A stretch of 36,171 nt of DNA from an uncultured Candidatus Saccharibacteria bacterium (GCA_964477715.1 CAYZEC010000006.1:1-36171), one strand, 5' to 3'. Shown: positions 24,122-33,027, numbered from the stretch's first letter. Notes: a model not told the origin generated them from the sequence alone. Made by a program: numbers and translations.

Positions 24122-25096
24122 TTATTTTAACTCTGTTTTTTCTAAAATTAAACCATTAAGTATTTTCTCGACTAGCTTAATACTATCTCCATCTAATATA
24201 GAGATGGGGGTTACGTCTTTATTTAGCTTTCTAAGTTTTTCGGAAGCTTTGTTAATAATTTCCTCTGAAACTACATCTTTTTTGCTCAAAAAAACATATT
24301 CTCTTTTTTCCAAAAGCATTTTATTGTGTACCCCAAGCTCTTCTCTGACTGTTTTGTAGTCCAATACTGGATCAGCTGAATCAGCAGCCACAAAATGAAA
24401 AAGAATCTTAGTTCTTTCTATATGGCGCAAAAATTTAAAGCCGAATCCCTTGCCCGAAGAGGCGCCCTCGATAAGCCCAGGAAGATCAGCCAAAATCAAT
24501 TCATCATAAACGCCTAAATTTGGTTCTAGGGTTGTAAATGGATAATTAGCTACTTTGCTTTTGGCATTAGTTAATTCGTTGAGCAAACTTGATTTACCAA
24601 CATTTGGCAATCCAATAAATCCAACATCAGCAATTAATTTTAATTCAAAACGAATTTCAAGAGATTCTCCAGGCTTCCCATACTCAAATTCTTTTGGGCT
24701 TGTATTAGTTGAAGACCTAAAATGAAAATTGCCCCTTCCTCCAATTCCTCCACAAACAATCATCTCAGTTTCTCCAATTTTGGTTATTTCAGTACTCTCG
24801 CCTGTTTCTAAATTGTGTATTACCGTTCCAACAGGAACTTTTAAAATCAAATCATCCGCATTGCTACCGTCACAAAATTGAGGACGACCATCTTGCCCAT
24901 TTTCAGCTTTAAATTCTTTTTTAAATCGGAATTTATTCAATGCGCTTAAATCAGAAATACCCTTAACGTAAACACTGCCACCCTCGCCACCCTTGCCGCC
25001 AACTGGGCCCAGAGACATTAGGTTTTTATTAAAAGCCACCGCCCCTTTTCCACCATTTCCAGCCGTCACTCTTATTTTAACGTCATCAATAAGCAT
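24122..25096 (-). CDS. obgE: GTPase ObgE/CgtA (short, no long C-terminal domain)
   Basis: Gly-rich N-terminus, GLPNVGKS, YPFTTLEPNLG, DLPGLIEGA. Confidence 0.96.
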   Translation of the reverse strand: MLIDDVKIRVTAGNGGKGAVAFNKNLMSLGPVGGKGGEGGSVYVKGISDLSALNKFRFKKEFKAENGQDGRPQFCDGSNADDLILKVPVGTVIHNLETGESTEITKIGETEMIVCGGIGGRGNFHFRSSTNTSPKEFEYGKPGESLEIRFELKLIADVGFIGLPNVGKSSLLNELTNAKSKVANYPFTTLEPNLGVYDELILADLPGLIEGASSGKGFGFKFLRHIERTKILFHFVAADSADPVLDYKTVREELGVHNKMLLEKREYVFLSKKDVVSEEIINKASEKLRKLNKDVTPISILDGDSIKLVEKILNGLILEKTELK

Positions 25097-25175
25097 ATTT
25101 ATATTTCTTATAAAAAATCAAATCCCGCTTTTAACGGGATTGATTTTCGTTTACTTAACTCTGCAAAAATGACTA

Positions 25176-25373
25176 TCAAACACGAGTTACATTTATTGCA
25201 TTAGGTCCTTTCGGAGAATCAGCTTTTTCAAAAGAAACTGTGTCACCTACGCTTAAATCTTCGTAGGCTACATCTTTCAGCTCGTTTCGATGAAAAAACA
25301 AATCTTTTTCTTCGCCTTCAATAGCAATGAATCCGAATCCCTTATCAGTAAGGTTTTTGATCGTTCCTTCCAT
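25176..25373 (-). CDS. cold-shock protein (CspA family)
   Basis: KGFGFI, DLFFH, KGPNAINV. Confidence 0.95.
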   Translation of the reverse strand: MEGTIKNLTDKGFGFIAIEGEEKDLFFHRNELKDVAYEDLSVGDTVSFEKADSPKGPNAINVTRV

Positions 25374-25595
25374 GATTTAAAAGATAAATTAATTTAATTA
25401 ATGTTTTAAGGTTTTATCCTAAAGCTTAGCGTCCAGCATAAATTCGACTAGATTTCTATTAGACGACTATCTTACTCGGATAGAGTACCACTTTAAAAGT
25501 AATTCGTCAACTAAATAATAGCCCTATTCGGAAAACAGTTTCAAAAATAGAATATTTTATGTAAATGAAAGTTAAGCAACTAGATGCCGATGTTT

Positions 25596-25835
25596 TTATT
25601 TATATTTTTTACCTGATCTTCTCTCAATTGATGGTATAAAAATATCATCGTTTTCGTTTCGATGAAAAATAATGCGAATATCTCCTTTACGCACCCGGAA
25701 AATATCATCCCGTCCTTTTAATTTTTTTACATCTAATGAGCCAGCTTTTCTTTGTTTAATTTTTTGAAGTATTATTTTAATGATCTTTCGCTCCTTTTCG
25801 TCTAATTTGCTCAATGCTTTTTCAATCTTATCCAT
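25596..25835 (-). CDS. RelE/ParE-family toxin
   Basis: DVKKLKGRDDIFRVRKGDIRIIF; downstream of a Phd antitoxin. Confidence 0.85.
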   Translation of the reverse strand: MDKIEKALSKLDEKERKIIKIILQKIKQRKAGSLDVKKLKGRDDIFRVRKGDIRIIFHRNENDDIFIPSIERRSGKKYK

Positions 25836-25842
25836 ATAAATA

Positions 25843-26064
25843 CTATATTCTGGAAATCAAATCTTCGATATTTAACCCACCTTTATGAATTTTAGTAAAA
25901 TCAATCACCCTTTCCCATTCTCCTTCATCTACGGGGGTAATTTTAAATAGAGGATCTGATCTTCGCATGACAATTAAGCTCTCTCCGTTTTTTACGCGAG
26001 CAACATATTTATCAACATTTTCTCTTAATTCTTTTAAACCAATCATTGTTTCCATAATATTCAT
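25843..26064 (-). CDS. Phd/YefM-family antitoxin
   Basis: IGLKELRENVDKYVARVKNGESLIVMRRSDPLFKITP. Confidence 0.88.
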   Translation of the reverse strand: MNIMETMIGLKELRENVDKYVARVKNGESLIVMRRSDPLFKITPVDEGEWERVIDFTKIHKGGLNIEDLISRI

Positions 26065-26079
26065 ATTAATTCTATTATT

Positions 26080-26099
26080 AGTTTAACTTAAGATAAACT
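26080..26099. promoter_or_regulatory. candidate TA autoregulatory operator
   Basis: Near-perfect palindrome AGTTTAACTTAAGATAAACT just upstream of the antitoxin. Confidence 0.45.
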
Positions 26100-26358
26100 T
26101 TTGTTAATTTTTAGAGATAATAATTTCTTATATCTGAGAATAAAAAACTCGCCAACAAAAAGAGAGAAAAATAATTAGCTTTCGCTAAATATTGATATTA
26201 GAATCTTTATTCCCCCAAGATGCTTAATTTCGAAAAACTTGCTCGAGGTTTTCGACATAATCAAGGGTCACAAACTGATCAAACCCCTTCAATGCCCTGA
26301 CATTTCCAATTCCTACCAAACTATTCTTGGTTAGAATATGGACAACCAGGCTTATTTT

Positions 26359-26880
26359 TCATTTCTTTTTAGCAGTAGTTTTCCTTGAAACTTTTTTATC
26401 TTTCTTGTCCGCTGATTTGAGAGATTTTTTGAAACTAATTTTTCCAGTAACTTTTTTTTCTTTATCTTCGGAATCAGTTTTTATCAAAGATTCTATTGTT
26501 TCTGGTGTTTCTAAGTGCTTGTCCTCTGGCGTTAAGATACTTATGATTATATCTAATTTAGCAATCAATTTATTAATTTGCTCATAATATCGATCATCTG
26601 GTTTTGGGGCACTAAAACTCCCTCTTCTCTCATCTCTGAACCCACCCCTCTCTCCTCCGTTCGAAAATTTCGAACTGCGACTCGGTCCACCCTGCTTTTT
26701 AAAACAATCCGAGCAATAAACTGGCTTGTGGTTCGTTGGCTTAAAGGGAACTTCGCATTTTTTGCCACAATCACTACAAATCGCTGGATACATCTCTACT
26801 GGCCCTCTCTCTCTTTGACCGCCGAAAGAATCTCTCTTGTTGAACCCCCGCCTGCCATCATTCCTTTTAAAGTTACTCAT
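26359..26880 (-). CDS. CxxC-x17-CxxC domain protein
   Basis: CSDCGKKCEVPFKPTNHKPVYCSDCF. Confidence 0.9.
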   Translation of the reverse strand: MSNFKRNDGRRGFNKRDSFGGQRERGPVEMYPAICSDCGKKCEVPFKPTNHKPVYCSDCFKKQGGPSRSSKFSNGGERGGFRDERRGSFSAPKPDDRYYEQINKLIAKLDIIISILTPEDKHLETPETIESLIKTDSEDKEKKVTGKISFKKSLKSADKKDKKVSRKTTAKKK

Positions 26881-27007
26881 ATTTTTTTCTCAGATGTTTT
26901 AATTTTATCTTTCTGATTATTAATGATAATCGTGGCACACATTATAAGATCTCGCTTGGCGGAATGGCTTTTGAGGCGAATTACTAAGAATATTCATGAC
27001 AAAGAAA

Positions 27008-27070
27008 ACAAAAACCCGAGATATTGTCTCGGGTTGCTCGGCTCTGGGAATGCAGCAAAGCTAGAACCTG
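27008..27070. repeat. junction J5 (attR-like): hairpin + GCTCT-N14-GCTAGAAC
   Basis: AACCCGAG-ATATTGT-CTCGGGTT, core at 27041, second box at 27060. Confidence 0.8.
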
Positions 27071-27122
27071 TTTTTGAAAAATAGGACGGGGACCGGGCCA
27101 CTCTGGCCTGATCCCCCGTAGT

Positions 27123-27333
27123 TCAATAACTTCCTTCGCCGACTCTCCATCCCGTCGGAAGATAAGTGTTTTTCTTCGCCATCGCAATCTTGTCTGGATG
27201 CTTGGGCGTTAGCGTGACTCGCAGACCCTCTTCTTCTGGAGTAAGGGGACCTCGTCATCTCTTCACGAGACTGACCTCTTTCCTCCGACGCATGATCGCA
27301 GTACGCTTTGCCACATGCAGGACACAGGCTCCT
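27123..27333 (-). pseudogene. decayed small Zn-finger-like gene
   Basis: TTGACA at 27394, SD AAAGGAG, AGG where ATG is expected, then SLCPACGKAYCDHASEERGQSREEMTR, +1 frameshift, PLTPEEEG...GEGSY stop, then a terminator. Confidence 0.6.
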
Positions 27334-27416
27334 CTGAGTTTCTCCTTTTCTCTGGGATAATCATGTCTCTGGCATTTAACTTGCAAACTGTCAAACCGCC
27401 TCCGGAAAAATACTAT

Positions 27417-27458
27417 TGGCTCCCCCTATTAGATGAAGTTCGAACTTATTTTGCTTAA
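27417..27458. repeat. junction J4: TGGCTCC-N14-GTTCGAAC
   Basis: Core at 27419, box at 27438; + strand reads WLPLLDEVRTYFA-stop. Confidence 0.75.
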
Positions 27459-27937
27459 AATGAAAAATCTGGAAACCCTTCCAACGTTCTGTCTAATAAT
27501 ATAAATGCTTGTAATCCTGTCTCAAATTCAAAAGATATATCTCCGCTATCTAATACAGATGCGTCTTTAATTATAGGCTGTTCCTTGAGCCACTGTACTG
27601 TTATATCAGTTGCATTAGAATCTCCTTGGTCTTTTAGGTCAGTAAACATGCTGTTGGCGTCTTCTATAGTCTGGAGTATTAACTCTGCTTCTTCTTCTGT
27701 CATTTCTCTAAATTCTTCTTCATCTTTATTTATAATAGGCGTTTCTGTATTGTCTATAATCTCGGGCTCTATAACAGTATAATCATCCTTATGATCGTCA
27801 TCTTGATTATTTTCAATGGAAACTTCCTCTTGAATTGAATTATTATCATTCAATACCCAAAAACCCGATAACCCTAACACGCCCATAATAATTATTGTTA
27901 TTACTGAAAATAATAGTATATATTTGTTAGCTATCAT
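27455..27937 (-). CDS. acidic membrane-anchored hypothetical protein
   Basis: N-terminal TM, acidic body, TGGTATAAT extended -10 at 27961-27969; the stop abuts junction J4. Confidence 0.75.
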   Translation of the reverse strand: MIANKYILLFSVITIIIMGVLGLSGFWVLNDNNSIQEEVSIENNQDDDHKDDYTVIEPEIIDNTETPIINKDEEEFREMTEEEAELILQTIEDANSMFTDLKDQGDSNATDITVQWLKEQPIIKDASVLDSGDISFEFETGLQAFILLDRTLEGFPDFSF

Positions 27938-28037
27938 TACTTTATATAAATAATTTATTTATTATACCAAAAAATCTCAATCGGTTCAAGCATGGAATAC
28001 AACTTACTTGGGGCTCTATGAATAAAAAAGTCTGAAA

Positions 28038-28140
28038 CAGCTCCGTATCGTGAACAACGCTAGAACCAAGATGGAAGGGGAAAATGAGCATATTTACATC
28101 TCAGATTTGCAAGAATGCGCTAATGCATAAACCTACCCTG
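28038..28140. repeat. junction J3: GCTCC-N14-GCTAGAAC plus ~100-bp tail
   Basis: Core at 28040, box at 28059; tail aligns ungapped with 29580-29682. Confidence 0.8.
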
Positions 28141-28153
28141 TCGGGCAGGATCA

Positions 28154-28927
28154 CTACAAATATTTTTTAATTTTTTTTAAGTATAAATTATTAAGACCGC
28201 CAAGTCTGAAAATTGCAATAGAATCAATTTTATTTTCTTTACAAAAAAATAAATCTTCATCCAGATTTTCGGGTTTTAAGATTGGTTCATTCCCAAAAAT
28301 CCCGATCGCAATAGTGCCTAAACCAATCTGGAGATTTTTACCCAATTCTAAAGAACGCTTAGCTATATCTTTTTTTATTTTTTCCAAAAGAAATTTATTT
28401 TTAATCATACTTGAATAAAACATTACTATCTTTTTATGAGGATATTTCTCGATAGGATAAGAAATACCTAGCCACTCAAATTTCTTTTGAATTATTTTAC
28501 TTGGAATTGGGTATTCAAAAACTAAGATTTGGATATTTAATTTTTTTGAATCTGTAAAAATTTTCCTAATAATTTTTTTGTTTTTGAAAAAAGAAAACAG
28601 ATTCCAGAAAAATAATTTTGGAGTCAAAAAAGGAAGTTCCAAATCAATCAAAATTTTTAAATATTTATCTTTTTTATTTTTGAGCAAATCATCATATAGC
28701 TTTCTTAATTCAAAAGTATATGAGAACGGCGAAATCCAATAAGATTTTTCTAGAATTGGCCAATATCCTAATTCGACCGTTGAATTAATCTCTAAAATTT
28801 TATCTTTAATAATGTTAAATTCTTCTAAAGACTTGGCAGCTATATAGATTAGTGAAGGAAAATTTATTAGGTTCAGTTTCGCCAAACTTTCCTCATTAGG
28901 AAATTCCTCAAAAAAATTAATCTCCAT
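28154..28927 (-). CDS. hypothetical protein
   Basis: 257-aa, very AT-rich ORF; ELGYWPILEKSYWISPFS...GLGTIAIG...IAIFRLGG; family not recognised. Confidence 0.75.
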   Translation of the reverse strand: MEINFFEEFPNEESLAKLNLINFPSLIYIAAKSLEEFNIIKDKILEINSTVELGYWPILEKSYWISPFSYTFELRKLYDDLLKNKKDKYLKILIDLELPFLTPKLFFWNLFSFFKNKKIIRKIFTDSKKLNIQILVFEYPIPSKIIQKKFEWLGISYPIEKYPHKKIVMFYSSMIKNKFLLEKIKKDIAKRSLELGKNLQIGLGTIAIGIFGNEPILKPENLDEDLFFCKENKIDSIAIFRLGGLNNLYLKKIKKYL

Positions 28928-29013
28928 AAATTAAAAATAATTAAGATATGTGAGTATTGTCTCGGTTAATCGGAACTAACTCGTTATTATGCGAACTCCA
29001 CAGTTTAAATGCA

Positions 29014-29282
29014 CTATTTATAGACGCTTCCTCTCCAATCGATCTGCTCTACAAGAACAACCGAGTTCTCGAAATCAAATTCAATCAGTAAACGCAATTT
29101 ACCACTTCGAAGGCGATAGAAACCCTTCCACTCTCCCTTTAATTTTTGATGTCAATATTAAGATCTTCTCCGTCAAAAAAACGAATGGATCTTCGGACAA
29201 GTTCCTGTATTTTTTCTATTGCTATCTGGTTTTTAACTGAAAATCTCTCTGAATCTTTAGAAAAATACAATTTCCAAGACAT
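29014..29282 (-). pseudogene. RelE/ParE-family toxin with frameshift
   Basis: MSWKLYFSKDSERF...NIDIK, one base missing in the A-run at about 29143-29147, then KLKGEWKGFYRLRSGKLRLLIEFD...IDWRGSVYK. Confidence 0.85.
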
Positions 29283-29285
29283 GTT

Positions 29286-29474
29286 TCAAAGAGGATGACT
29301 CTTGGACTTTTGGCGAGAGGGCTTGCCATACCTTTTTTCAATATCTTTCTGCTCTCGCTCAGAAACATCAGACAAAGACAAAGCCCTGAGCTTCATGAGC
29401 TCCGAAGTCAAAACCTCGCGCACGCTTTCTTTAATAAGTCCTTTTAATTTTTTCTCAGAAACATTGGCATTCAT
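29286..29474 (-). CDS. putative antitoxin
   Basis: MNANVSEKKLKGLIKESVREVL...VSEREQKDIEKRYGKP, ending 3 nt before the toxin ATG; start chosen at ATG 29474. Confidence 0.7.
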   Translation of the reverse strand: MNANVSEKKLKGLIKESVREVLTSELMKLRALSLSDVSEREQKDIEKRYGKPSRQKSKSHPL

Positions 29475-29550
29475 TACCTGCATATTACTATATAGAAATA
29501 CCTCGGTCAATTGCTCAATCACCTGACGATACCCTAAAAGTAAACGCTAC

Positions 29551-29682
29551 AAAAAACCGAGATATTATCTCGGGCTGCCCTGCTCCCCATTGTGAACAAT
29601 GTTAGGACCAAGATAGAAGGGGAAAATGAGTATATTTGTATTCCTGATTTAAAAGAATGCGCTAATATGTAAACTTATCCCA
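29551..29682. repeat. junction J2: hairpin + GCTCC-N14-GTTAGGAC plus tail
   Basis: CCGAG-ATATTAT-CTCGG, core at 29582, box at 29601. Confidence 0.8.
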
Positions 29683-29857
29683 CCCCGCTAATCACTATAT
29701 ATCATTATTAGAAAATCAAGAAAATATCTCTGTTATTTCAATTCGCTCTGGCCTGTTCCGGGGGTTAGCAGAACCTAAACCCGTCCGAGAAAGAAACAAA
29801 AGTTTCCTCGAAAACACTAAATAACTTGACAAAATGCTACGATGGTAATATCCTGTA

Positions 29858-29914
29858 ATTAGAATTCACAGGAAAAAGCACCTCTTAAGGTTTTGTCCTT
29901 CTGCGGTGCTTTTT
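29858..29914 (+). ncRNA. candidate short RNA convergent on the NYN gene
   Basis: TTGACA at 29826 with -10 candidates TAATAT/TATCCT; stem AAAAAGCACC/GGTGCTTTTT enclosing AAGG/CCTT. Confidence 0.35.
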
Positions 29915-30414
29915 CATTTTAGCTTTCTCTGGTATCCCAGCTTTTTCTGCAGATTGTTGATAAAAACAATTTTTTCTTTGGCTGATTTTTTTATCAAGCT
30001 GGAACAGGTTTCGCTATAAGGGCTGATTACGCGTTCAAGCTTGTTTTTGCCATAAAGATACTTGATCAAAGAATAGAAATCTCCATCGCTGGAAATAATT
30101 ACTGCTTTATCGTAATTATCAAGATCAATCATCGCTTGAAGAACAAGATCGGCATCTATATTACCCTTTATATTCCCGTCACTATCGGGAATAGTCGGTT
30201 TGAATATTAGAACATAGCCTGCTTTTTGCAGGAAAGAATAAATGTCTTGATTTCCGGAAACATAACCAATGAAATAATAAGCTGTTGTTACAGCATATTT
30301 TTCCTTGAGATATCTGCGAAAACGAATAAAATCCAATCTCCAGCCCAGACTTTGGATTCCAAGATGAAGATTCTGCCCATCGATAAAGGCATAATTCTTT
30401 TCTCTTTTATTCAT
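29914..30414 (-). CDS. NYN (PIN-like, LabA/DUF88) domain protein
   Basis: AFIDGQNL, KGNIDADL, IISSDGDFYSL. Confidence 0.92.
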   Translation of the reverse strand: MNKREKNYAFIDGQNLHLGIQSLGWRLDFIRFRRYLKEKYAVTTAYYFIGYVSGNQDIYSFLQKAGYVLIFKPTIPDSDGNIKGNIDADLVLQAMIDLDNYDKAVIISSDGDFYSLIKYLYGKNKLERVISPYSETCSSLIKKSAKEKIVFINNLQKKLGYQRKLK

Positions 30415-30425
30415 ATTTTCAGTAT

Positions 30426-30497
30426 ATTATAACACAAAAAACCCGAGAAAATGCTCGGGTTTTCAATGCTCCGGGAATGCGACAAAGTTCGAACCTG
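30426..30497. repeat. junction J1: extended -10 + hairpin + GCTCC-N14-GTTCGAAC
   Basis: AAAACCCGAG-AAAATG-CTCGGGTTTT, core at 30468, box at 30487; TGTTATAAT on the - strand at 30434-30426. Confidence 0.8.
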
Positions 30498-30559
30498 CTG
30501 ACAATGAATCATAGAAAATCTGTAGCCGAATAAGATCAGCCTATCGACTGAATAACAAG

Positions 30560-30763
30560 CTAGAACGGTAATAAAGATGGGGAAAAAATACGAACCGATA
30601 AAAGCACAACTAAGAAAACGATGAAAAGGAATAGGGATGCGCCCACGGCAAAACCAAAACCCACTTTAATTGTCTCCTAGAAGGAGATACTTATTTTGAT
30701 CTGATCTTTTTCTGAATTAGAAAAATCATTTTCAGTGGAAATCGATAAATCCTTGTTTTCCAT
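30560..30763 (-). pseudogene. small single-TM protein with premature stop
   Basis: MENKDLS...KISISF*ETIKVGFGFAVGASLFLFIVFLVVLLSVRIFSPSLLPF; in-frame TAG at 30679-30677 (possibly from TGG). Confidence 0.6.
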
Positions 30764-30770
30764 ATATTAA

Positions 30771-31319
30771 TTAGTTGATGTTCTCACTTAGTTTGTTTCT
30801 TTGGTCAAGAAATCCATCGACTAGGCCAGAGATTTCTATGAGGCCATAAGATTGCCCAGCTCTTACGCGTAGGATGGATAAGCCTGCCGAACCTAGAGCC
30901 ATGTCAACGAAACTATCTCTTTTTTTAACATTTTCTTTGCTGTGGCTTGAGTCATCTAGCTCTACCACTAAAAGGGGTCTTATTTTCACTTTATCGCAAA
31001 GCAAAAAATCTACATGTCTTGATTTTATTCTCTGGCGCAAAGCAAATCTTTCCTTTGAAGTTACTCCTTTTGGGATCCAGAGCAAGTCTTCTAGGCGCAC
31101 TTTCGCAAACAATAGAAGATCCTTTTTCGCGGCAACTTCCTTTAAAACGTCATAGAAATTCTTTTCAGCAATAGATAAAAGATAGTCTTTTTTTCTATAT
31201 GGATAAGACTTTGATTCCTTTTTAGAAGAAAATAGCTTGCCCTCGTAAGCGGAAAAAGCAATTATTGCAAAAATTATGATTAGTAATATTATTAATGGCT
31301 TCATATTATTATTTGCCAA
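30771..31319 (-). CDS. DUF2726-domain protein
   Basis: LLSIAEKNFY, FAKVRLEDLL, HVDFLLCD, VELDDSSH, RDSFVD. Confidence 0.9.
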   Translation of the reverse strand: MANNNMKPLIILLIIIFAIIAFSAYEGKLFSSKKESKSYPYRKKDYLLSIAEKNFYDVLKEVAAKKDLLLFAKVRLEDLLWIPKGVTSKERFALRQRIKSRHVDFLLCDKVKIRPLLVVELDDSSHSKENVKKRDSFVDMALGSAGLSILRVRAGQSYGLIEISGLVDGFLDQRNKLSENIN

Positions 31320-31367
31320 CTGACTGGCTAATTATGTTTTCACGTATTGAGCGCATTAAATAAAACA

Positions 31368-31757
31368 TCATGATTTTCCAAAATTATTCAGCTTAAAAGA
31401 TATCTCATAAATATAAACCTCAACATTTGCCAGCATTTCTTGGGCATAATCAAATTTTTGATCGTATTGGCCAACGACAATAACCCCCTTAACATTGCTA
31501 TCGTTCTTGTTCTTCTTTATCCACCCCATATATCGTGTTAGCTGTCCAATAGTATCATCGCTTGTTTGTCCTTTTTTAAGCTCAATCACAACATAAGAAC
31601 TGGTTTCTTTGTCTTTCGCCAAGATATCTATTGATCCAATATCTGTCTTATATTGCTGGCTGACCATCTCCCCGTCTTCAATAATCAAATCAAACTTTTT
31701 ACCCAATTCCGTACTCTCCCAATTATGGATCAAGAACTCCTCTAGATGGCTTTCCAT
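31368..31757 (-). CDS. NucS/EndoMS-like PD-(D/E)XK nuclease domain (possibly N-terminally truncated)
   Basis: ESHLEEFL, GSIDILAKD, VVIELKK, GQLTRYMGW, VKGVIV. Confidence 0.85.
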   Translation of the reverse strand: MESHLEEFLIHNWESTELGKKFDLIIEDGEMVSQQYKTDIGSIDILAKDKETSSYVVIELKKGQTSDDTIGQLTRYMGWIKKNKNDSNVKGVIVVGQYDQKFDYAQEMLANVEVYIYEISFKLNNFGKS

Positions 31758-31821
31758 AAATATTTTTGATTACTCTAGATGTATAATAACACAAAAACCA
31801 GAGATATTGTCTCGGGTTGCT

Positions 31822-31896
31822 TGGCTCCGGGGGTCGGACTCGAACCGACAGCCGACGCGTTAACAGCGCGTTGCTCTACCATTGAGCTACCCCGGA
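31822..31896 (-). tRNA. tRNA-Asn(GTT), CCA encoded
   Basis: TCCGGGG/CCCCGGA acceptor, ACGCG-CTGTTAA-CGCGT anticodon arm, GTCGG-TTCGAGT-CCGAC T arm, G-CCA. Confidence 0.97.
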
Positions 31897-31953
31897 ATGT
31901 ATTTAATTTATAGGAGAATGAATATTTTTTCAAGCATTCTTCCTAATTTCAAT

Positions 31954-33027
31954 TTAATAATCTTCCAATTTCTTCAAAGATTCATCAGAGCGCATTCTTT
32001 CTAAGGCCTTAACCTGAATCTGCCTAATTCTTTCTCGAGTAACATTAAATTTCTCACCCACCTCTTCCAACGTTCTGGGCCGACCGTCATCCAATCCAAA
32101 TCTCATGGCTAAAATCTCTCTTTCACGAGAAGTTAAATCTATTAACATTTTATCGATTCTTTCTTTCAGTAAATTACGAGCGGCTGGATCTGAAGGTGGA
32201 GCCGTATCTTTATTCTCGATAAAATCAATTAAAGAGCTAGAATCATCATCTTGCCCAACTGGCTTTTCCAGAGAAACTACTTCCCGTGAAATTTCCATGA
32301 TTTGATGTGCCTTCTCAATTGGAATATTCATTTCAGCCGCCACCTCTTCAGCTAGCGGTTCTCGACCCAATGTTCTTTGTAATCCTCGACTGATCTTACT
32401 GTATTTTGTTATCTTTTCAATCATATGAACCGGAATGCGAATTGTTCGAGCATGGTTAGCCAAAGCCCGAGTAATAGCTTGACGAATCCACCAAGTGGCA
32501 TAAGTTGAGAATTTATAGCCACGTCGCCAGTCAAACTTTTCAGCCGCTCGGAATAAACCGAGATTCCCTTCTTGGATTAGATCTAATAAACTAAGCTTAG
32601 TTGTCCGATTAGCATATTTCTTAGCAATTGAAACCACTAAACGTAAATTGGCTCGAATAAGTTTCTGCTTCGCCTCCTTATCGCCTTTTTTTATCTTCTT
32701 GGATAATTCTTTCTCCTCATCTCCATCAATTAATTCCGTCCGACCGATTTCTTGCAGATAAGCTTGGACAGGATCTATCTTCGTTACCAACCCCTTTTCA
32801 GATTCTATTTCACCTGATAAATAAGAAATTTTCGGCTTAACTTTTATGCCTTCAATCTCTAAAAAGCGATAAGTCGCCGTCATCTTCTTAACATCACTTT
32901 TTAATCTTGGAAAAGTATAAGAAATTTCGTCCTCGGTTATGAAACCGCGGTCACGAACTTTATCTACTAAAGCGATAAGTCTTTTCTCGTGAGCTGTCTT
33001 AAGCTTTAAAGTCTTTTTCGGGGGCAT
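31954..33027 (-). CDS. rpoD: primary sigma-70 factor
   Basis: [49 protein letters not shown]...VTRERIRQI; follows dnaG. Confidence 0.96.

Follow-up and report, generated by a model that had tools for sequence, protein, structure and literature searches.

Genes for tRNA-Asn are known targets of tyrosine-integrase islands, and asn-tRNA islands such as HPI (high-pathogenicity island) exemplify these tRNA-gene islands (Islander-type arrays). Tyrosine integrases also act where attP lies within a gene, as with archaeal integrases of the SSV (Sulfolobus spindle-shaped virus) type and in integration-dependent phage immunity. Cis-mobilizable elements (CIMEs) are recombinase-less, att-flanked units stacked at one target by tandem accretion; the examples given in the relevant part of one account use tyrosine integrases (PMC5704250). 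For serine integrases, a part of Rutherford et al. 2013 (PMC3783163) describes a motif for the zinc-ribbon domain at bp 16–24 in attP and, 5 bp closer to the centre, at bp 11–19 in attB. Here, we analyzed a tandem array beside the tRNA-Asn gene of an uncultured Candidatus Saccharibacteria bacterium. It lies in a 36,171-base stretch (GCA_964477715.1 CAYZEC010000006.1:1-36171, hereafter the window), which is the whole of one contig (C6) in a 28-contig, 484,956-base assembly. An initial annotation had read the array as integron-like cassettes of a form without a name. We find that the array is explained by a known enzyme family, the large serine recombinases (LSRs), in an unusual arrangement, and that the integron-like reading is a minority possibility.

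Five junctions on one strand adjoin tRNA-Asn

The motif GCTC[CT]-N14-G[CT]T[AC]G[AG]AC occurs at 27041, 27419, 28040, 29582 and 30468, always on the plus strand, and nowhere else in the 28 contigs (484,956 bases). In 30 mononucleotide shuffles, its mean count was 0.2 and its maximum 2. The motif was derived from the five sites themselves, so it is their clustering and shared strand that carry weight. The same core stands at the end of tRNA-Asn (GCTCC at 31824), where the equivalent box, ACTCGAAC, begins at +14; in the junctions it begins at +19. Both the sites and this offset had been given in the initial annotation, as had the unit sizes of 1356, 886, 1542, 621 and 378 bp, which follow from the junction coordinates. 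Open reading frames (ORFs) of at least 60 aa with family matches inside the units all lie on the minus strand, that of the tRNA. A tRNA-like nature of the junctions was also considered; ARAGORN finds no tRNA or tmRNA at any of them.

The conserved backbone here is dnaG-rpoD-tRNA-Asn ... obg, with rpoD and dnaG upstream of the tRNA. From tRNA-Asn to obg, the window spans 6.7 kb, versus only ∼1.4 kb of unrelated sequence in a genome of the same genus (G001). Base composition of the window is patchy, with G+C ranging from 0.25 to 0.51 over 300-nt windows.

The junctions encode severed LSR tails

On the plus strand, all five junctions translate as (L)(R)xx(D/N)x(V/A)RT... and then reach a stop codon. 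Loci of relatives were gathered by exact matches to one 29-mer only, AGGTTCGAAC-N12-CCGGAGC, whose opposite strand encodes (W)LRGxDDVRT in a frame open to a stop at nearly fixed length. Among 107 metagenome stretches matched, 80 were examined; in the 82 instances that these contain, the tail runs for 27–28 codons in 32 and for 31 codons in nine. Typical tails are LRGADDVRTYWQTTKEWFEVPVLVHP and LRGTDDVRTFLEDAEEEIEIPAYALPA, each ending in a stop. Across 27 unique tails, outside the part fixed by the search pattern, entropy is 0.83, 0.77 and 1.40 bits at the three codon positions, highest at the third. The two long tails of the window (29582 and 28040) differ from each other at 4, 4 and 10 sites by codon position, and they align to the very last 29 residues of LSR sequences P0044 and P0023, respectively (55% identity; E = 8e-9 and 3e-9).

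Complete LSR ORFs with the 29-mer near their 3' end are present at two loci (L082, 623 aa; L087, 713 aa). Homologues of the C-terminal 126 residues of the protein at L110 were sought among longer proteins, and 94 were obtained, nearly all of 490–534 aa with Resolvase (PF00239), Recombinase (PF07508) and zinc-ribbon (PF13408) domains. Their C-termini vary. A native tail (...D.VRT...) is found in 10 of the 94, a string resembling an antisense tRNA T-arm (e.g. ...RGQDSNLQP...) in 25, and a stop no more than 3 residues from LRG/crossover in 52; the other 7 end differently or lack the anchor motif. At the one locus inspected for this, L197, the early stop is the antisense of the T-stem.

LSRs were found at E <= 1e-20 in 16 of 61 relatives. 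Of the 23 LSR loci returned, 16 have an ORF whose end overlaps a convergent tRNA or continues through it, and ten tRNA types are targeted (Asn, Gln, Ile, Ser, Gly, Leu, Ala, Glu, Pro and Asp). In an attL example from G006, a remnant of 233 aa from the C-terminus of an LSR runs convergently into tRNA-Asn; its final residues are ...CPTW, then LRGSDSNRQPTR and a stop, the last 12 being antisense tRNA. Full-length LSRs with the 29-mer at the 3' end, together with LSR ends running into tRNAs, place attP inside the 3' end of the LSR gene itself. At three further loci (L109, L134 and L136), a tail scar lies ∼3.7 kb upstream, in the tRNA sense, of an LSR C-terminal fragment that stops at the crossover, and no tRNA was called between the two.

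These data show that the scars are LSR-derived, with the geometry and arrangement of parts described here. Since the junction tails are LSR gene ends and the units hold no LSR, the array reads as LSR-less units stacked in tandem, with an attR scar at the end of each. We consider it highly likely, for the explanation as a whole, that the five junctions are attR scars with a detached C-terminal LSR tail and an attP-type half-site, and that at least five recombinase-less units, and probably six, stand in tandem across 27041–31821, such a scar closing each of them.

Attachment-site geometry

Measured from the GG of CCGGAGC, GGTTCGAA lies at –24 to –17 in seven attP examples and in junctions 30468 and 27419, and variant boxes occupy the same place in the other three junctions. 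In tRNA-Asn, GGTTCGAG, which is the real T-loop, lies at –19 to –12 from the predicted central GG (plus-strand CC at 31827–31828). This is the same 5-bp shift as in the part of PMC3783163 that treats att sites, and we therefore take the +19/+14 offset as an instance of the attP/attB rule. The box of the junctions (GTTCGAAC/GTTAGGAC/GCTAGAAC) is a T-loop-like motif of the attP-type half-site, 5 bp farther from the crossover than the T-loop of the tRNA. The predicted crossover is at the GG of CCGGAGC, which corresponds to codons L-R of ...(W/L)LRG.... This GG is present in the tRNA and in four of the five junctions, and is mutated to AG in junction 27041. A crossover at this point would restore the tRNA end (AGCCA) from the element side, as W-L in the LSR frame. 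As the initial annotation had argued, then, the junctions are not plain tRNA fragments: the box is 5 nt out of register, and the left side is an LSR gene end.

Recombinases lie outside the window

No recombinase gene was found in the window, as had been reported, and no LSR remnant at E up to 5, apart from the antisense-tRNA codons. Across the genome, PF00589 matches only on contig C11, PF00239 only on C23, and LSR queries only on C22 and C23. The C11 protein, a Xer-like enzyme encoded among housekeeping genes, is the genome's sole tyrosine recombinase. A Xer/dif-like reading, or one invoking integrative mobile elements exploiting Xer (IMEX), was considered because of this recombinase and rejected; by eye, the 29-mer has no inverted arms. 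On C23, a 3-kb contig, a 452-aa LSR (G000:C23:1388-2948) converges on tRNA-Gln(CTG), leaving a gap of ∼130 nt, and its start lies just inside the end of the contig. An N-terminally truncated LSR runs off the start of C22 (C22:1-667). Upstream of tRNA-Gln is a 203-aa ORF that, by eye, resembles an insert of the homing-endonuclease type. The proposal that site-specific recombination at the 3' end of tRNA-Asn made the junctions, that these bound piled-up recombinase-less units and that the recombinase is encoded elsewhere is borne out.

How the stack may have formed

We propose that elements would integrate at the tRNA-Asn 3' end through an LSR whose attP sits in the 3' end of its own gene. Integration would join the LSR body to the tRNA (attL), the LSR frame then finishing in antisense tRNA. 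The last 10–30 codons, with the attP-type left half-site, would end up at the far end of the element, joined to the sequence that had followed the tRNA (attR). Units would pile up through repeated integration at the tRNA, with the LSR gene lost each time, either by decay or by excision via a different attR that leaves the distal cargo behind. Together with nearly any neighbour on its right, the tRNA would be open to targeting again.

Comparison with relatives bears on this model. The trailer, promoter-like box and NYN start that come after junction 30468 recur in G010, where they are attached to tRNA-Asn itself at GGAGC, which indicates that unit 1 of the window sits exactly between the tRNA core and the 30468 scar. 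The sequence AGGCTAGTG...GACCGAG starts four of 18 distinct tRNA-Asn trailers of relatives. It follows tRNA-Asn directly, with a terminator after it, at L008, L009, L012 and L013 (G040, G031, G008 and G002), and it also follows scars at seven other loci (L042, L043, L064, L105, L116, L126 and L155). In the LSR frame, it reads like a short relic of a recombinase gene end, a putative attL relic, and its presence after tRNAs and scars may be a sign of occupied-site re-use.

Of the two routes to a recombinase-less unit, decay (integration, then loss of the LSR gene) is illustrated by the remnants in G006 and C22, which show such loss, and it fits the decayed scars at 27041, 27419, 28040 and the sixth position. 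Deposit (excision in which the tRNA site pairs with another scar, so that whole units are left or taken) is preferred for some units because their ends are clean, LSR debris is missing and trailer-like hairpins recur at near-constant distance. Each route thus fits part of the array.

Several observations weigh against the proposed model. The array holds no LSR gene or remnant, and the assembly (94.8% complete) has no LSR of the tRNA-Asn type, only the different one beside tRNA-Gln and the truncated one on C22. The tRNA-trailer-like hairpins after three inner junctions, at near-equal distance from the core, are poorly explained by random LSR deletion. The crossover dinucleotide is predicted from geometry, not measured, and no mirrored motif is recognisable in the right half-sites of the attP, attL and attB examples. 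On one related contig, L060, a fragment of a tyrosine integrase (Phage_integrase) stands 53 nt upstream of the first 29-mer. Finally, canonical serine integrases do not, to our knowledge, target attL, so an additional assumption is required for elements to integrate repeatedly at a single tRNA.

Parts and cargo of the array

Coordinates of the scars, hairpins and genes are collected in Table 1.

Table 1. Features of the tRNA-Asn array in the window, from the tRNA outward; the junctions are listed as the attR scars that they very probably are
Feature	Position	Strand	Remarks
tRNA-Asn(GTT)	31822–31896	-	ARAGORN call; Rfam 72.7 bits; would supply the B (left) half of the attachment site
tRNA trailer	31794–31821	-	Terminator-like hairpin (CCAGAGA/TCTCGGG) and T-run; 89% identical to trailer after junction 27041
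Unit 1, PD-(D/E)XK nuclease, 129 aa	31368–31757	-	NucS_C (7.6e-16); C-terminal part of PADLOC candidate defence family PDC-S02 (8.8e-45)
Unit 1, DUF2726 protein, 182 aa	30771–31319	-	9.1e-29
Degenerate sixth scar	∼30539–30600	+	Core decayed to GCCTA; GCTAGAAC box kept; like 28040 tail; frame broken, stops after 3 codons
Junction 1, attR scar	30468–30501	+	Core GCTCC and attP-type half-site; LSR tail LRECDKVRTC, stop
Terminator hairpin and T-run right of junction 1	30437–30464	-	Aligns with G010 tRNA-Asn trailer up to NYN start codon
Unit 2, NYN-domain nuclease, 166 aa	29914–30414	-	
Junction 2, attR scar	29582–29672	+	Tail LPIVNNVRTKIEGENEYICIPDLKECANM, stop; aligns to residues 493–521 of 522-aa LSR P0044
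Terminator hairpin right of junction 2	29557–29573	-	
Unit 3, ORFs of 78 aa (29286–29522), 47 aa (29139–29282) and 257 aa (28154–28927)	28154–29522	-	No family match
Junction 3, attR scar	28040–28130	+	Tail LRIVNNARTKMEGENEHIYISDLQECANA, stop; aligns to residues 306–334 of 334-aa LSR fragment P0023
Unit 4, 160-aa protein	27455–27937	-	N-terminal hydrophobic stretch; no family match
Junction 4, attR scar	27419–27458	+	Tail LPLLDEVRTYFA, stop; no hairpin after it
Unit 5, G+C-rich piece	27078–27418		G+C 0.51 versus ∼0.38 for the contig; no convincing gene
Junction 5, outermost attR scar	27041–27077	+	Tail LWECSKARTCF, stop; length equals native tail of LSR P0033
Terminator hairpin right of junction 5	27013–27035	-	

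Related terminator hairpins with a T-run follow, in the tRNA sense, junctions 27041, 29582 and 30468 and tRNA-Asn itself; junctions 27419 and 28040 and the sixth scar have none. A terminator scan called three of these hairpins (nine sites in total versus 3.1 expected). The identity between the trailers of the tRNA and of junction 27041 extends across 47 nt (27002–27048 versus query 6–52), and the tRNA trailer and the hairpin of junction 5 form a ∼45-nt direct repeat that brackets the entire array. After the tRNA trailer comes a promoter-like box, TGTGTTATTATAC. A 99-nt repeat, 80% identical between its two copies, is common to junctions 28040 and 29582.

The cargo consists of nucleases, the DUF2726 protein and ORFs without a family, with no recombinase, integrase or transfer gene among it. 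A NYN gene 46% identical to that of the window is the first unit behind tRNA-Asn in G010. In G006, a 5'-truncated NYN copy, 94% identical to the window's, abuts the LSR remnant. The segment 27100–27399 (G+C 0.51, no gene family) is probably a foreign fragment within unit 5. Between the array and obg, at 25596–26064, lie a gene for a Phd/YefM-type antitoxin (73 aa) and an adjoining 79-aa ORF, likely a toxin–antitoxin pair; metagenome locus L162 carries a pair 60% identical to this one.

Spread of the element

A scan of related genomes for the junction, proposed in the initial annotation, was done with a stricter pattern. AGGTTCGAAC-N(5-45)-CCGGAGC is present in 13 of 401 same-order genomes, versus one for the reversed control, and the match is exactly 29 nt long in 11 of the 13. 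In a species-genome collection, the fixed 29-mer occurs on 19 contigs. Ten carry labels of the Patescibacteria group (Nealsonbacteria, Saccharibacteria, Terrybacteria and others), and four of low G+C have other labels and the same inner consensus. The remaining five, of high G+C and without that consensus, were taken as chance matches, because ∼4 are expected by arithmetic. The exact 29-mer was not found in viral contigs.

A tRNA-Asn gene was seen upstream within the stretch at 4 of the 80 metagenome loci, and 0.7–1.3 kb upstream of the 29-mer at genome loci in G010, G030, G148 and G240. Arrays with two or three tails but no LSR body occur at G030, L094, L113, L120 and L150. L060, a 7.7-kb contig labelled Bacteriovorax, carries the exact 29-mer three times, always on the same strand; an identical stretch of ∼45 nt follows the first and the third copy, which enclose two-component and phosphoesterase genes. 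These copies suggest that the element family extends beyond Patescibacteria and that another integrase type is present at the same locus. In G007 (C1:21548-21870; L006/L035), the match to tRNA-Asn is split, its halves ∼229 nt apart with the break near the anticodon. ARAGORN called no tRNA-Asn there, and this may be an intron-bearing tRNA gene.

Possible strain differences in other samples

Other samples were examined as Logan contigs; four runs (X1 to X4) were compared with the window, X5 (share 0.06) and X6 being set apart; X3 and X4 are possibly one data set. Two runs cover the stretch almost fully and could be where it came from, and X3 and X4 hold a near-identical strain at 3–5x depth. In the latter two, a contig over 26370–27040 stops exactly at the 27041 core; two pieces of unit 1 (30590–30832 and 30929–31269) match the window without a difference, as does the tRNA-rpoD region. 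Over 27170–27803 and 28438–29388, no contig of 3–5x depth was placed, gaps that alone prove no absence. Contigs of X1 and X4 over the tRNA carry 21 and 16 unlike letters just before 31821, i.e. a different tRNA neighbour, and the 16 letters of X4 are not found in the assembly. These data hint at strain differences at two of the cores. A circular or empty-site form of a single unit was not seen in these contigs of 3–5x depth. The comparison of tRNA-Asn loci that the initial annotation had called for yielded a joint exactly at GGAGC in G010 and a short interval of unrelated sequence in G001; no unit was caught on its own. A joint from 24279 to 30921 (22 letters between) and two 184-nt skips were rejected; their sides are short and probably come from other organisms.

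Over 29706–30022, a non-coding stretch plus the 3' end of the NYN gene with no Rfam family, summed contig depth rises 3- to 10-fold in all four runs (64.6, 209.9, 11.8 and 12.3, versus ∼10, 20, 3–5 and 3–5 nearby). This suggests a sequence common to other organisms or copies.

Discussion

The explanation we favor, a stack of units left by LSR elements, has to be weighed against others, one of which overlaps it and differs only in how units arrive. The units could be living cassettes. An LSR, in trans or in cis, would together with a directionality factor recombine the tRNA site with any tandem attR; recombinase-less units would be picked up, carried and deposited singly or several at once, in an integron-like shuffling by serine recombinases. 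We regard this as possible but somewhat doubtful. Units 1 and 2 and the array as a whole end exactly at the core, with promoter-like and terminator modules intact and no LSR debris, and the inner trailers resemble tRNA-Asn trailers of other lineages such as G010; yet the NYN genes of the present genome (G000) and of G010 are followed by different tail types. Likewise, the near-identical strain has a contig ending exactly at 27040 in two runs, identical pieces of unit 1 and no coverage of two inner segments, and unlike letters precede 31821 in two runs, but contigs only 3–5x deep make gaps uninformative, the two runs may be one data set, and no single unit was seen as a circle or an empty site. 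LSR-body-less arrays of two or three tails recur elsewhere. In the window, however, the central dinucleotide of 27041 is mutated, and 27419, 28040 and the sixth scar have no hairpin, as in decayed scars. Moreover, we know of no documented serine-integrase reaction that joins attB to attR or uses alternative attR sites. A wider version of this idea, which we think unlikely, would have an LSR clade in Patescibacteria and some other phyla with attP in the gene end and the universal tRNA T-loop as zinc-ribbon motif. Scars would stay live, recombinase and directionality factor would pair the tRNA with any scar, and nuclease and defence units would move as cassettes, forming a serine-recombinase counterpart of the integron. 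Within such a clade, the swap of C-terminal tails at integration may set LSR activity or stability.

The two remaining alternatives dispense with LSRs. A classical array of tyrosine-integrase islands, with displaced tRNA 3' fragments as junctions, would suit tRNA-Asn as a target and the Phage_integrase fragment on L060. Yet identity to the tRNA extends over just 8–9 nt (CC(C)GGAGC), with the T-loop-like box out of register and an LSR gene end as left arm, and the sole tyrosine recombinase of the genome is the Xer-like one; we judge this reading very improbable. It is scarcely credible that the repeats are a structured RNA, or a duplicated terminator or 3'-UTR (untranslated region) module, with no role in recombination. 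Every junction does lie at the 3' end of its unit's genes, most with a terminator after it, and a longer copy (L042:1405-1600) folds with z = -2.2, but an Rfam scan of window positions 25000–33000 and 11 related loci gave only tRNAs at meaningful scores. By inspection, an alignment of nine rows (A1, in which the L041 row has wrong coordinates) contains no consistent compensatory pairing or supportable helix. Variation instead tracks codon positions on the opposite strand, and the RNA reading was dropped because that frame was found.

How, then, does the locus compare with described systems? With tyrosine-integrase tRNA islands, it shares the target at the 3' end of tRNA-Asn, a tRNA kept intact and tandem joints on one strand; what is displaced here, in contrast, is no piece of tRNA, and the integrase belongs to another family. 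SSV-type integrases and integration-dependent immunity resemble it in that attP lies in a gene, so that integrated and free forms encode different proteins, whereas here a serine recombinase trades no more than a short C-terminal tail for antisense-tRNA codons or an early stop. Like integrons and CALINs (clusters of attC sites lacking integron integrases), the array consists of small gene units on one strand, each ending in a conserved site, with accessory cargo and no recombinase. Its sites, however, are coding remnants rather than folded attC hairpins, a serine recombinase takes the place of IntI, insertion is at a tRNA gene and not at attI, and the units carry promoter-like and terminator modules of their own. 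By the attC criterion (folding and a GTTRRRY core; no attC model was run), no inverted repeats were found within the junctions, terminator hairpins aside. Nor is there an IntI-type recombinase beside the tRNA, the single PF00589 match in the genome being the Xer-like one on C11. Of the integron-like reading, the stacked recombinase-less units stand. The tRNA as attI and one-by-one insertion in trans find no support here: no unit was seen moving alone, and the IntI tyrosine recombinase, folded attC sites and promoterless cassettes of integrons were not found.

Nor is the form without a named relative, as the initial annotation had held. The scars are LSR-derived, and the nearest named concept, in the part of PMC5704250 concerned, is that of CIMEs formed by tandem accretion. 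In both cases integration genes are lost, att sites are kept and units stack in one orientation at one end of a target gene. The present array differs in having serine-recombinase scars, a family for which re-use of an occupied site is not expected, in the very small size of its units (0.4–1.5 kb) and in its Patescibacteria-type host, judged by the labels of related contigs. As in the LSR att sites of Listeria A118/LI, Bxb1 and phiC31 (treated in a part of PMC3783163), the zinc-ribbon motif is 5 bp nearer the centre in attB, the predicted central crossover is short and hybrid scars combine one P-type with one B-type half. The differences are that attP here lies in the 3' end of the recombinase gene, so that integration swaps the last 10–30 residues; that the T-arm and acceptor end of a tRNA gene make up the B half-site; and that several tandem scars stand at one target. 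Our literature search turned up no account of a serine recombinase gene with attP straddling its 3' end at tRNA genes, nor of a clade that targets at least ten tRNA types and alters its C-terminus at integration; the supplementary tables of LSR surveys, where such sites may be listed, lay outside that search.

A repeat that looked nameless thus becomes a readable record, in which each junction identifies the recombinase family behind it. It also provides a natural, many-fold replicated case of the attP/attB 5-bp rule, in which the motif recognised is the T-loop of a tRNA. The LSR clade concerned targets at least ten tRNA types and alters its own C-terminus at integration. In very small genomes of the Patescibacteria type, the tRNA-Asn locus gathers nuclease and defence-like genes via serine-recombinase elements. 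Re-use of occupied sites, if true, would bear on how strictly serine integrases choose their substrates, and hence on their use in genome engineering.

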